Source of the DNA: Candidatus Helarchaeota archaeon
Lineage (GTDB): Archaea > Asgardarchaeota > Lokiarchaeia > Helarchaeales > RDOG01
Assembly: GCA_019058315.1 (NCBI GenBank)
Contig: JAHPZH010000008.1
Coordinates: 128,001 to 192,000 of the forward strand
Length of the DNA: 64,000 bases
Reading direction: 5' to 3'
Below, piece after piece: positions 60,288 to 64,000 of the stretch. The notes under the pieces were generated by a model. It worked only from the letters and a program-made list of their open reading frames with translations, did not search any database and was not told where the DNA came from. Made by a program: the position numbers and the translations under genes. Numbering within the stretch: position 1 is the stretch's first letter; each line of letters opens with the position of its first letter.

Positions 60288-61592
60288 TTATTTTACTTTT
60301 GCTTCAAATTCTCGGACAATTTCTGCCATTGGATGCTTCTTTCTTAAATCTATAAATCGCTTTCCTTTTCTTCCAATTTGGGGAATATTTTCTACAAATT
60401 TAACGGAAGTTGGACTGAGCTTCAAATGAGTTTTAATAGATTGAACAATTTTATTTTTAAGATTATTAGACTCATCAGCATCCACATAAATTCGAATGAC
60501 ATCGCTATCTTCAACCTTATCTATCACACAAAGATAGGTTCTTATATCATTATTAAACATGGCACTTTCAAATTGGTATGGGTTAACAAGTGTTGCCTTA
60601 ATCTTAGTCAAATCGTCCAACCTTTGTTCAATTAAGGAAATCCTTACTAAATTCCTTCCGCATGCACAACCTCTCCCAAGGATACTTGATTCATCCCCTG
60701 ATTTATAACGAATTGCGATAGTACCTGTTTTGTTTAAAGTGGTAAATACAAGTTCTCCTTTCTCATTTGGTCCTAATACTTCACCTGTCTTTGGATCTAC
60801 CACTTCTACGATCACATCATCTTCTGGCCAATGGATTCCGTTTTTTTCTTCGCATTCAGATCCTGCACCAATTTCAGACAGTCCATATCCAATTTTACAA
60901 TCTACACCCCATAAATCTTCAATTTTTTTACGAACTGAAGGAGGCACTGGTTCTCCTAATACATAGGCTTTTTTTAGAGTCGAATCACTTGGATTTTTAC
61001 CTATTTTTTTCCAAGTATTTCCCCATCGTAAAAAATATTGAGGAAGCCCGATAAAAACAGTTGGACGAAAAATTGGATTGAAAATATTATTCAGATGTGC
61101 CATACCAGTCTTTAATGTGGAAGCTGGAATAATAAAACCGCCTAATTCCTTCGCGGCATCATGTAAAACCTGACCAGCAAAGAACATTCCATATGGGGTT
61201 GAATTATAATATCTATCTTTTGCTGTACATCCACAACGCACAAGACATCTTACATTTTGGGCTACATAGGTTTTCCAGTCTGATTTAGTAAAAAACACAA
61301 TTGTTTCTCCTTGTCCAGATGTTCCTGACGTTGTATGAATTTTAAAAACATTGTTTAAATCCCCCACTGCACCCTCTGGATCACTTACAATATCAATTTT
61401 TGAAGAAAATGGTATTTTTTTCAAATCATCAAGTGTTTTTATATCATCAGGTTTTAAACCAACAGATTTTAACTTATTCTTATAAAGACGAGTATTATCA
61501 TATGCATAATGAATAACTTTTCTTAAACGATTTTCTTGTAATTTTATAAGATCTTTTTCTTTTATAAAATCAAGATCCTTATCAAATGACAA
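60288..61592 (-). CDS. Phenylacetate-CoA ligase / coenzyme F390 synthetase family protein
   Basis: DLKKIPF, HTTSGTSG, GEP, YGLSE, GELVFTTL, IRYKSGD, CACGR, RLDD. Confidence 0.9.
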   Translation of the reverse strand: MSFDKDLDFIKEKDLIKLQENRLRKVIHYAYDNTRLYKNKLKSVGLKPDDIKTLDDLKKIPFSSKIDIVSDPEGAVGDLNNVFKIHTTSGTSGQGETIVFFTKSDWKTYVAQNVRCLVRCGCTAKDRYYNSTPYGMFFAGQVLHDAAKELGGFIIPASTLKTGMAHLNNIFNPIFRPTVFIGLPQYFLRWGNTWKKIGKNPSDSTLKKAYVLGEPVPPSVRKKIEDLWGVDCKIGYGLSEIGAGSECEEKNGIHWPEDDVIVEVVDPKTGEVLGPNEKGELVFTTLNKTGTIAIRYKSGDESSILGRGCACGRNLVRISLIEQRLDDLTKIKATLVNPYQFESAMFNNDIRTYLCVIDKVEDSDVIRIYVDADESNNLKNKIVQSIKTHLKLSPTSVKFVENIPQIGRKGKRFIDLRKKHPMAEIVREFEAKVK

Positions 61593-61601
61593 TAATTTCC
61601 C

Positions 61602-61793
61602 TCATAATCGATTTAGTAATTCTTTTAAGCTTGCTGTTGCTTTTTCAATATTTTTTATTGCATCTTCAAAATATTTTAAAAGGTCATTTGATTTAACTTC
61701 CTTGGATAGTTCTCTAAGTTTATCGGCATGTTCGTCTATATGTTCTATATAATGTTCAACATATTTTTTAATTTTATTTAGATCTTCAGACAA
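61602..61793 (-). CDS. Small helical His-containing (putative metal-binding) protein
   Basis: EHYIEHIDEHADK motif; 9 bp upstream of the PaaK-family gene. TTG 61793 is the likely start. Confidence 0.6.
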   Translation of the reverse strand: MSEDLNKIKKYVEHYIEHIDEHADKLRELSKEVKSNDLLKYFEDAIKNIEKATASLKELLNRL

Positions 61794-61830
61794 ATTTAGC
61801 ACTTCTTTTTTATTTATCCGTAACAATTGG

Positions 61831-61987: not shown

Positions 61988-63004
61988 TTAACCCAACTTA
62001 TCTTTAAGAGCCTCATCTATACTAGCTAATCGATCTGAAATGGTATCTTCCTTTTTCTTATCTTTCTTCTTCCCTTTTTTCTTATCCTTCTTCTTTTCAA
62101 TTTCTTGGGTTGGTGGATTTGGTCTAGCACTTGGTGGAGCACTTGGTGGACCTCTAGGTGGACCAGTACTTGGTGGACCTCTAGGTGGACCACCACCTGA
62201 TGGTACATTGCCCCCTAGTTGCTTTTGGAATTTATCGTCTAATAATTTATTCATTTTCTTGGTTAAACCTCCGTCAATTGGCTTAGCTGCTCGTGGTTGA
62301 TGAATTTTAGGAACATAATCTTTTTGAATAGGTCCCATCCCACCTCCACCACCCATTGGACCTACTGTTCCTGAGCGTTTTCCCAGTTTAGATTTAATTT
62401 CTGACATCATCGCCATACGAACGCTCATACCACCCATAGGGGCAGGCCCTCTTGGAGCAGGTGAACTAATTGAAGCAGATTTAAAAGAGGATGGTTTGAG
62501 TAAATTTTCTTCTACCACAGCTCCTTCTGGTCTGGGAGGAGTTGGAGGTATCCCAACCACTGGAGCTGCGGGAGCAACAGTCACTGTTTTTTGAAAATCT
62601 TCCCATTGTGTTAAAAGTTTCTGGATTACTGATTCAAAATCAACAATTTTTGACCCCATTGAAGTAATTTGATTTCGCAAATCTTGTTCATAAGCTGGAT
62701 TCATTGACCCAGTAGAAGATCCTTGTTGTTGAAGAGATTGAATTTGGAATTCTACTAATTTTTTAAATCTAGTTTCCAAATCCCCAACTTTTGAAACGAC
62801 ATCATTCAACTGATCAAACATATATCGAACATATTCATTAATTGTCATTGCATTCTCTTCTAACCTTTCGGTATAATGTAAAATTGTTTCAATAGATCGG
62901 GCTAAAATGATAATTTTATCAGCATCATGTCTATAGGTTGCAATAACATCTAATAGAGAGGGTTCTTCCTCCTCTTCCACTTCTTCATATTCTTCGTTTT
63001 CCAT
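61988..63004 (-). CDS. Coiled-coil + proline-rich protein with WH2/VASP-like amphipathic helices
   Basis: Acidic N-terminus, heptad region, Pro-rich segments, RMAMMSEIKSKLGKR, GGLTKKMNKLL, (GPPRGPPS)x2, Lys tract. AGGTGA SD. Confidence 0.8.
   Translation of the reverse strand: MENEEYEEVEEEEEPSLLDVIATYRHDADKIIILARSIETILHYTERLEENAMTINEYVRYMFDQLNDVVSKVGDLETRFKKLVEFQIQSLQQQGSSTGSMNPAYEQDLRNQITSMGSKIVDFESVIQKLLTQWEDFQKTVTVAPAAPVVGIPPTPPRPEGAVVEENLLKPSSFKSASISSPAPRGPAPMGGMSVRMAMMSEIKSKLGKRSGTVGPMGGGGGMGPIQKDYVPKIHQPRAAKPIDGGLTKKMNKLLDDKFQKQLGGNVPSGGGPPRGPPSTGPPRGPPSAPPSARPNPPTQEIEKKKDKKKGKKKDKKKEDTISDRLASIDEALKDKLG
62141..62192 (-). repeat. 25-bp exact direct repeat (27-bp period) encoding GPPRGPPS twice
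   Basis: acttggtggacctctaggtggacca at 62141-62165 and 62168-62192. Confidence 0.9.
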
Positions 63005-63284: not shown

Positions 63285-64000
63285 TCAAATTCCGAAAGAT
63301 TTCCGTAATAAGTCTATGTCTAATTTACCTGCCATAATTGTTTTCCCTGTCCTTATGTCATTCACTGTAATTTGCGCTGGAGCGAATAATAAGGGGTCGA
63401 TGTTATAAAAATCCTTACCGGCATCAACAAAGATTTGATAAAATGGTTTTCCATATTGTTTAGAAGTACTTGAAGGAACTTTTTTAATTACTTCCTCTAA
63501 GTTATCGCCCTCTGTACTATTTACATTATAAATTACGCTACCTACAGCTATAATTGCATCATTTGTTACTCCCATTGCCTTTGTATCGGATTTTGCTATG
63601 GGTGCTATAGGAGTAGAGCCAATTCCATATGCTATTTTCTTGGGATCATAACCTACTTCGTGAAGTTTATGAATACCCATTTCTACTACACGAGCTGCGA
63701 TTTGTACTCCTCCAGCAAGACTAGCAGTTGGAGCTATTAATGCATATACTTTATCAACATCAACTTTACATTTAGTCGCAATCACTTCCATTACTTTCTC
63801 ATTAGGCAATACATTTCCTTCAAGGACAGCAATTGCCACGTCAGCATTGTCTTTATATTGGAGTTCATCAAAGAGTCCTTTTTCTCCGCCTTTCAGAGCT
63901 CTTGCAGGACCGCTTAACATAGCAAAATAGTTTTCTTCTTTCACATTTAATCTCCAACCAGCGAATTGAGATCCTAGACAAGCTATATGAGGAAAGTCTG
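63285..64000 (-). CDS. mch: Methenyltetrahydromethanopterin cyclohydrolase (5' part outside the window)
   Basis: CLGSQFAGW, SGPARAL, APTASLAGGVQIAARVVE, AMGVTND, VPSSTSKQYGKPF, DFYNIDPLLFAPA. Confidence 0.95.
   Translation of the reverse strand, partial: DFPHIACLGSQFAGWRLNVKEENYFAMLSGPARALKGGEKGLFDELQYKDNADVAIAVLEGNVLPNEKVMEVIATKCKVDVDKVYALIAPTASLAGGVQIAARVVEMGIHKLHEVGYDPKKIAYGIGSTPIAPIAKSDTKAMGVTNDAIIAVGSVIYNVNSTEGDNLEEVIKKVPSSTSKQYGKPFYQIFVDAGKDFYNIDPLLFAPAQITVNDIRTGKTIMAGKLDIDLLRKSFGI

Follow-up and report, generated by a model that had tools for sequence, protein, structure and literature searches.

The locus considered here lies in a window of 64,000 nucleotides (the whole stretch of DNA analysed, from a Candidatus Helarchaeota archaeon) and raises the question of whether Asgard archaea encode a regulator of actin resembling WASP or VASP, as was originally predicted for its product. 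It corresponds to a 338-aa ORF, with an ATG start and a stop codon, located at 61988-63004 on the minus strand. In the translation of the window, every ORF feature listed in the original prediction is found where it had been placed. These include the segment PAAPVVGIPPTPPRP (residues 145-159), the motif PAPRGPAP, a helix RMAMMSEIKSKLGKR (residues 196-210), a GGGGG linker (residues 218-222), a second helix GGLTKKMNKLLDDKF (residues 245-259) and the segment GPPRGPPSTGPPRGPPSAPPSARPNPP (residues 272-298), with the positions given for the two helices being exact (62375-62419 for R196-R210 and 62228-62272 for G245-F259). The layout of the gene and of its product is as follows, AF2 referring to the AlphaFold2 model described below.

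61988..63004, minus strand: whole gene, 338 aa, which sequence comparisons support as a long-form member of a pan-Asgard family with a helix, Pro-linker and end-helix layout
62960..63004, minus strand: acidic N-terminal tail, residues 1-15, MENEEYEEVEEEEEP; only part of the family has this tail
62585..62956, minus strand: helical hairpin, residues 17-140 (H17-22, H27-94 and H103-140), as predicted by AF2 with pLDDT 80-90
62528..62575, minus strand: Pro-rich linker 1, residues 144-159, APAAPVVGIPPTPPRP; Pro runs of PP at most
62483..62527, minus strand: block 1, residues 160-174, EGAVVEENLLKPSSF; E165, L168, K170, P171 and S172 invariant
62372..62437, minus strand: block 2, residues 190-211, MGGMSVRMAMMSEIKSKLGKRS; AF2 helix H195-209, the 'WH2-like' helix of the original prediction
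62279..62317, minus strand: block 3, residues 230-242, YVPKIHQPRAAKP; P232, I234, P237 and A240 invariant, extended and non-helical in the model
62219..62272, minus strand: block 4, residues 245-262, GGLTKKMNKLLDDKFQKQ; AF2 helix H245-262, the 'FAB-like' helix of the original prediction
62111..62203, minus strand: Pro-rich tract 2, residues 268-298, PSGGGPPRGPPSTGPPRGPPSAPPSARPNPP; P290 and P291 invariant, PP dipeptides only
62051..62095, minus strand: polybasic Lys tract, residues 304-318, KKKDKKKGKKKDKKK; character conserved across the family
61994..62044, minus strand: C-terminal helix, residues 321-337, TISDRLASIDEALKDKL; family pattern [RQ]L..[IL][DE]..[IL]..K[LF]G

The net charge of the protein is -16 over residues 1-140 and +18 over residues 141-338. 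Its longest Pro run is of two residues, as is that of 14/21 family members.

Predicted structure and conservation of the long form

In the AF2 model, which was built on the family alignment and has a mean pLDDT of 61.8, the N-terminal helical hairpin is confident (H27-94 and H103-140, pLDDT 80-90) and carries two residues, D29 and K30, that are invariant in the family; it is presumed to be an oligomerisation or anchor domain. The ca. 200 residues C-terminal to the hairpin are predicted to be a disordered, basic chain rich in Pro, Gly and Lys, of low confidence in the model and broken by three separate helices (H195-209, H245-262 and H321-337), of which the first and second coincide exactly with the two motifs that had been flagged from the sequence. 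Foldseek comparison of the model with the PDB returned generic helical hairpins only (E>2), and the ESM atlas gave no usable match for the disordered half.

Twenty homologs of the window protein were found, all annotated as 'hypothetical' in MAGs labelled Helarchaeota, Lokiarchaeota, Hodarchaeota or Promethearchaeota. In the alignment of 21 long-form members (A1), the majority-residue fraction is of 0.78-0.80 in the four motif blocks versus ca. 0.45 in the linkers between them, which indicates that the gene is real and selected; both the gene and its family are thus beyond chance. The consensus is VVEExLLKPSxF for block 1 (160-174), GGMSxRMAMMxEIK for block 2 (190-207, with R196, A198, M199, M200, E202 and I203 invariant), Y[VI]PKI[HQ]xPRxAK for block 3 (230-242) and GGLxxKMNKLLDxKF for block 4 (245-260, with M251, N252, L254, L255, K258 and F259 invariant). 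The two helices noticed at the outset (blocks 2 and 4) are therefore kept in the orthologs and belong to the best-conserved parts of the family. Two further conserved blocks, 1 and 3, had not been recorded in the original prediction.

The full-length long form occurs in 7/7 genomes of the order to which the window belongs and in no other of 400 Asgard genomes. An exhaustive hmmsearch of 1.84 billion representative proteins with the core spanning blocks 1-4 gave nine matches, all to the long-form family, and revealed no eukaryotic relative. Pfam and NCBIfam scans of the window protein and of all family members detected generic coiled-coil noise only, with no nucleic-acid-binding domain in the window protein, and a sequence search of the PDB with the full family profile retrieved coiled coils only. 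The neighbours of the long-form gene (aldolase, POR, ParA/NUBPL, MFS and Mch) are unrelated housekeeping genes that are not conserved and vary between families.

A short pan-Asgard family and the reuse of its motifs

Weak matches of the long-form profile in other Asgard classes brought to light a family of short proteins of around 150 aa (ca. 135-190 aa), which are unnamed and all annotated as 'hypothetical'. In these proteins, a helix precedes a linker that contains true polyproline (e.g. GGPPGGPPGGPPPPPGGPP), and the C-terminus is formed by the near-invariant helix P[VM]SLRGAIMGELKxLFAKRK, hereafter the end helix, the PPPPP tracts being located directly before it. This short family is present in 290/400 Asgard genomes, including 74/90 high-quality ones, and in 70/85 genera; in Pfam and in the ESM atlas it is represented by uncharacterised entries only, the atlas clusters being unnamed and Asgard.

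Profile-profile comparison (hhalign) of the long-form alignment A1 with that of the short family (A3) gave a probability of 98.0% and an E value of 1.8e-13 over query positions 119-222 and template positions 53-148. In the window protein, the homologous span corresponds to residues ca. 109-212 and thus comprises the second hairpin helix, at which the alignment begins, the Pro linker and block 2. An HMM restricted to the end helix (A4) matches block 2 at E 1.2e-11, and one built on the first ca. 45 residues of the short family (N-domain) matches the window protein at E 0.65, a coiled-coil level only. The hhalign and end-helix comparisons support the view that the window gene is an extended, order-specific (Helarchaeota-type) form of an undescribed pan-Asgard family, the two proteins sharing in the same order a helix, a Pro-rich linker and an R...M.E(I/L)K helix. 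It is an extended variant rather than a typical member because its end helix is internal and its Pro runs reach only two residues. Indeed, the end helix closes the short proteins, whereas in the window protein it occupies residues 190-211 of 338 and is followed by ca. 125 residues containing blocks 3 and 4, the second Pro tract, the Lys tract and the terminal helix. In addition, block 1 is inserted within the linker of the window protein, whose N-terminus is extended by a further helix with an acidic tail, and the true PPPPP of the short family is lost, having decayed to PP dipeptides. Finally, the long form is confined to one order, unlike the short family.

The genome of the window also reuses elements of this architecture: the end-helix module is found in a short paralog (C5:154133-154534), in a 310-aa Zn-ribbon protein (C1:568670-569599) and in a 406-aa fusion of HEAT repeats with a wHTH domain (C1:532476-533705). 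Three look-alike copies of the module are present in the Zn-ribbon protein; the end-helix HMM detects two of them, and the other was recognised by eye only. Two small coiled-coil proteins (C5:132119-132568 and C5:134868-135437) have the block 1 motif, EExL[LI]KPSxF, at their end. The end-helix and block 1 motifs look like portable docking peptides. No longer protein bearing the module was retrieved in two fusion ('Rosetta stone') searches of large databases, a weak negative since one of the searches was crowded out by polyPro words; in the phylum sample, the longer module-bearing forms are only of ca. 410-436 aa. Fusions to a gelsolin or to a GTPase were not recovered: in a coiled-coil gelsolin of this genome the N-domain HMM match reflects a generic coiled coil only, and the match to a Ras-family protein whose tail looks alike was not significant.

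Comparison with WH2 and Ena/VASP proteins

Whether the resemblance to WASP or VASP extends to descent was addressed by profile searches. The Pfam WH2 model (PF02205, cut-off of 23.1 bits) had no match at E<=10 in the 21 long-form members, the window protein included, or in five short-family members, nor did the genome to which the window belongs yield any at E<=1. The WH1 (EVH1) and VASP_tetra models had no match in the long-form family, and neither the end-helix profile nor the 106-aa motif core nor the C-terminal helix retrieved a WH2, VASP, thymosin or MIM chain from the PDB at E<=10. An ESCRT-III MIM1-like nature of the terminal helix, for which a heptad pattern is the sole support, was accordingly discarded in view of the lack of a MIM match in the PDB.

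The N-terminal helix of WH2 domains follows the pattern R-x-A-(L/M)-(L/M)-x-x-I-(K/R) and is followed by basic residues. Block 2 of the window protein fits this helix pattern as well as the basic residues downstream, with the LKK[VT]-like spacing being one residue short. Across the family the segment that follows the block 2 helix varies (KLGKR, RMSKR, RIGST, KMRGS or KMGGG). The family consensus thus has no LKK[VT], an absence already pointed out for the window protein, and KLGKR is found only in its closest relatives. Together with the negative Pfam and PDB searches, and with a score of -0.1 bits for the human VASP GAB peptide against the block 2 profile, this argues against the identification of block 2 as a WH2 motif. 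As for the 'FAB-like' identification of block 4, the human VASP FAB peptide scores only 0.2 bits against the block 4 profile, although GGL...MN.(L/M)L is common to Ena/VASP FAB and to block 4 of the window protein. Aligned with the profile of the pan-Asgard end helix (iMsELKsLFsKRkgq), which includes block 2, the same peptide reached 7.6 bits, corresponding to E 1.4e-4 when a single peptide is considered; only two non-family ORFs in the 3.0 M six-frame residues of the genome score as high or higher. The FAB likeness of the end-helix profile, block 2 included, is suggestive at best because this comparison was chosen post hoc among many actin-binding motifs.

In human VASP, the GAB, the FAB and the tetramerising coiled coil span residues 223-239, 259-278 and 343-380, respectively (PMC10340426). 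The EVH2 region of Ena/VASP proteins and the window protein have in common a helical domain, which is presumed to oligomerise in the window protein, a Pro-rich region and two short basic helices located ca. 35 residues apart in a disordered chain. They differ in that the window protein has no EVH1, places a hairpin at its N-terminus where VASP has a right-handed tetramer at its C-terminus, and shows Pro runs of two residues instead of GPPPPP; its blocks 1 and 3, Lys tract and terminal helix have no counterpart in VASP. Overall, the VASP-like layout on which the original prediction was based stands, but a kinship to WH2 or Ena/VASP proteins is not supported by formal sequence tests. 'WASP/VASP-like' may thus describe a likeness of action and not of descent, in which case the resemblance to VASP would have arisen by convergence or go back too far to be traced.

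Actin system, gene context and candidate function

Among the products encoded by the genome, which amounts to 5.8 Mb and comprises 12 contigs, are a bona fide actin (E 4e-134), several actin-related proteins, gelsolin-repeat proteins and a profilin (C6:117602-117961) matching the solved Asgard profilin 5ZZA at E 2e-17. The premise that actin and profilin occur in Asgard archaea therefore holds in this organism, in which the actin that the proposed function calls for is present. The Pfam profilin model misses this profilin. In the four genomes of the order that were examined, the short paralog adjoins a Roadblock-like gene and belongs to a cluster that includes a V4R+Roadblock gene, a gene for a giant coiled-coil protein and, ca. 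4 kb away, a gelsolin-repeat gene; in the genome of the window, an actin-family gene is found 5 kb from the short paralog and a Ras-family GTPase gene within 10 kb. This gelsolin-containing cluster is order-specific, and the neighbours of the short gene outside of the order are not actin-related. An Elf1-like gene on one side and hexapeptide-repeat genes on the other flank the short gene in two closed genomes of Loki type, an Elf1-like gene being nearby in 7/33 loci, and in another large lineage it follows a gene for a 207-aa helical protein. No phylum-wide conserved neighbour of the short gene was found among the loci compared. Hexapeptide-repeat genes also flank the HEAT-repeat fusion paralog in the genome of the window.

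The most likely function of the protein is that of a multivalent tether docking through its motifs onto a conserved partner; an end helix that is nearly invariant between Asgard classes calls for a partner that is itself very conserved. The leading candidate is the actin system, on which the protein would act in the manner of Ena/VASP EVH2 regions with no detectable relatedness to them, a tentative reading that we place at a probability of roughly 0.4. According to this mechanism, the N-terminal hairpin would oligomerise or anchor the protein and the disordered arm would serve as the multivalent tether, each of its motifs docking onto the very conserved partner. For block 2, the universal end helix, the proposed role is to bind actin as Ena/VASP GAB and FAB segments, WH2 helices and the archaeal arcadin-2 bind actin-fold proteins, and block 4 together with the Lys tract would supply affinity for the filament side; the oligomer could then bring monomers or filaments together and favour their elongation or bundling. 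A stricter version, in which the protein would be the archaeal functional counterpart of Ena/VASP, with block 2 capturing actin monomers while block 4 and the Lys tract ride filaments, is unlikely.

A mechanistic precedent for the role proposed for block 2 exists in arcadin-2, an archaeal protein in which a non-conserved linker connects a core to a small, conserved helix at the terminus. In Pyrobaculum, this helix binds the hydrophobic groove of crenactin, as solved with a peptide of 17 residues (PMC5173319). Arcadin-2 differs from the window protein in several respects: it depolymerises and sequesters, it has a single motif with a Trp-centred interface, and it comes from another phylum. As for profilin, a classical recruitment by the long form is unlikely because Pro runs exceed two residues in only a minority of members; the Loki and Odin profilins have moreover been reported not to bind polyproline (bioRxiv 10.1101/2020.04.23.051748).

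The same architecture could serve a multivalent adaptor for a conserved protein other than actin, for instance of the Roadblock/small-GTPase polarity type or a hexapeptide-repeat (LbH) protein, the VASP likeness being then a compositional coincidence. This is a possible, if somewhat doubtful, explanation that draws on the genes surrounding the paralogs: the Roadblock-like gene immediately beside the short paralog in 4/4 genomes of the order, the V4R+Roadblock gene nearby, to which a Ras-family GTPase gene is added in the genome of the window, and the hexapeptide-repeat genes flanking the short gene in the two Loki-type closed genomes as well as the HEAT-repeat fusion paralog. It would also account for the failure of the formal WH2/VASP tests, for the sharing of block 1 with two other small coiled-coil proteins and for the occurrence of the end-helix module in architectures as varied as Zn-ribbon and HEAT+wHTH proteins, as would be expected of a general docking peptide. 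However, none of these neighbours is conserved phylum-wide and no fusion names a partner; an end helix nearly invariant from class to class requires an extremely conserved partner, a role for which actin is at least as good a candidate. The polybasic tail could alternatively reflect a basic disordered protein associated with nucleic acids, chromatin or the ribosome, with the Lys tract and the basic helices as its presumed RNA- or DNA-binding elements; the Elf1-like gene, which adjoins the short gene in the two closed genomes and is nearby in the 7/33 loci mentioned above, would hint at transcription. We regard this as highly improbable, since domain scans detected no nucleic-acid-binding domain, conservation falls on hydrophobic-core helices and extended motifs and not on the basic tract, and the Elf1 adjacency is lineage-specific.

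A further explanation is that of a membrane-associated scaffold in which the basic helices and the Lys tract would bind anionic lipids and tether the coiled-coil domain in the style of MinD or FtsA. The charge of +18 over residues 141-338, which include the KKKDKKKGKKKDKKK tract, and the succession of flexible linkers and short basic helices are compatible with such a scaffold, as is the targeting helix of Bacillus MinD, which we take to be similar to block 2. Lipid-seeking amphipathic helices usually have clearly higher hydrophobic moments than those calculated here, which are 0.15 in block 2 and range from 0.06 to 0.20 in the end helix of the short family; the moments of the VASP GAB and FAB are similarly low (0.17 and 0.16, respectively). 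In addition, the invariance of the polar residues R196, E202, N252 and K258 points to specific recognition and not to a pattern of hydrophobicity. Together, the low moments and the invariant polar residues favour docking onto a protein over lipid binding, and we consider the membrane scaffold quite unlikely.

A gap in the literature speaks for the multivalent tether acting on actin. In the papers surveyed, up to Nature 2026 (PMC13716822), profilins and gelsolins are the only regulators named for Asgard actin, so that an Asgard assembly factor is missing; recent work holds that Asgard archaea seem to depend mainly on these two groups and contrasts Asgard motility with eukaryotic formin or Ena/VASP systems. 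Against the actin reading, co-immunoprecipitation with Lokiactin is described in the main text of PMC13716822 to yield profilin, gelsolins, an ARF GTPase and BAR proteins, and neither the short nor the long family is among them. The WH2-like motifs reported for Asgard archaea are LKKT-like linkers inside gelsolins, and no report of a VASP-, WASP- or WH2-type Pro-rich protein in these organisms was found in the literature surveyed.

The window protein is thus a good, albeit unproven, candidate for an actin regulator. By combining an oligomeriser, a Pro-rich arm and helices resembling actin binders, it belongs to an obvious family in which to seek the missing assembly or elongation factor, and the long form, with two candidate helices and two further motifs, offers four defined peptides for binding tests. 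Should the partner not be actin, the reuse of block 1 and of the end helix would point to an undescribed docking system of short linear motifs in Asgard archaea. If the stricter version of the actin reading is true, Asgard archaea would possess a multivalent factor for filament elongation or bundling that arose before, or independently of, the eukaryotic WH2 and EVH2 proteins, and the pan-Asgard short family would represent the minimal form of this Ena/VASP counterpart.

Genes flanking the long-form gene

The genes flanking the long-form gene are metabolic, the downstream one as judged by eye, and a small ORF lies directly downstream:
63285-63998 (-), methenyl-H4MPT cyclohydrolase (Mch; Pfam E 1e-94), upstream, truncated by the window end
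61602-61826 (-), all-helical ORF of 74 aa, directly downstream
60288-61592 (-), gene of 434 aa, downstream, which we take by eye to resemble a phenylacetate-CoA-ligase/F390-synthetase-type adenylating enzyme

Pfam matches of the 74-aa ORF were weak and of coiled-coil type only. An ORF of 70 aa occupies the equivalent position at L006, a locus of the sister family, and no sequence similarity was detected between the two.

Loci of the short family and of profilin

The short paralog of the window's own genome (G000) belongs to a gene cluster, and profilin is encoded on another contig:
L059:8347-12371 (G000 C5:152346-156370), cluster with the short paralog(s), also at L066, L067 and L068
L073:603-962 (G000 C6:117602-117961), profilin gene
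L038:781-1398, conserved, unannotated all-helical protein of ~207 aa, also at 22 other loci (L031-L058)

Within the window's order, the cluster is conserved at these four loci. Its members are a 284-aa gelsolin-repeat protein whose tail is rich in Lys, a Roadblock-like gene (133 aa), one or two short-family genes in tandem, a V4R+Roadblock gene and a gene for a giant coiled-coil protein. In G000, an actin-family gene of 570 aa and one for a Ras-family GTPase are found no more than 10 kb away. The profilin matched the solved Asgard profilin 5ZZA (E 2e-17); the Pfam profilin model gave no match to it. It is directly followed by a gene of 314 aa (C6:118102-119061) which contains a PPPPP run and whose sequence, by eye, is presumably gelsolin-like.

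In one large Asgard lineage, the gene for the ~207-aa protein directly precedes the short-family gene and shares its strand at 23 of 33 loci, and may be its operon partner. At L060 and L061, from two closed genomes of Loki type, the short gene is flanked by hexapeptide-repeat genes.

End-helix and block 1 motifs in other proteins

Other G000 proteins carry segments that match or resemble the C-terminal end helix of the short family, its N-domain (first ~45 residues) or block 1 of the window protein:
L062:3477-6380 (C1:532476-535380), HEAT-repeat fusion of 406 aa and its neighbour
L063:3671-4588 (-) (C1:568670-569599), Zn-ribbon protein of 306-310 aa
L065:2769-3989 (-) (C9:84768-85988, outside the window), Ras/Roc-family GTPase of 407 aa
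L064:4120-4554 (-) and L064:6869-7432 (-) (C5:132119-132568 and C5:134868-135437), two small proteins with coiled coils and S/P-rich linkers

In the fusion, HEAT repeats and a wHTH-like segment are joined to the N-domain and the end helix, and its gene adjoins that of a hexapeptide-repeat (LbH) protein of 518 aa; N-domain-bearing proteins of like length (~410-436 aa) recur in other genomes. The Zn-ribbon protein, whose gene adjoins a WD40 propeller gene, has a central ribbon and three end-helix look-alikes, two of which (RTLMMNELKGLFSRYK and SLRTALMMELQRLFAARRQ) score with the end-helix HMM while the third (SLIEELRLFFARRSN) was recognized by eye only; their tandem arrangement is somewhat reminiscent of multi-WH2 proteins. 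The GTPase tail (..YLMLREAMLSELKRIKNIMLSS) also looks like an end helix, but its HMM score was not significant.

Finally, the two coiled-coil proteins terminate in ..EDDSLLKPSDLFG and ..EEGLIKPSTFFGS, sharing EExL[LI]KPSxF with block 1. Since they have it in common with the window protein, the motif is apparently a portable, putative C-terminal docking peptide.
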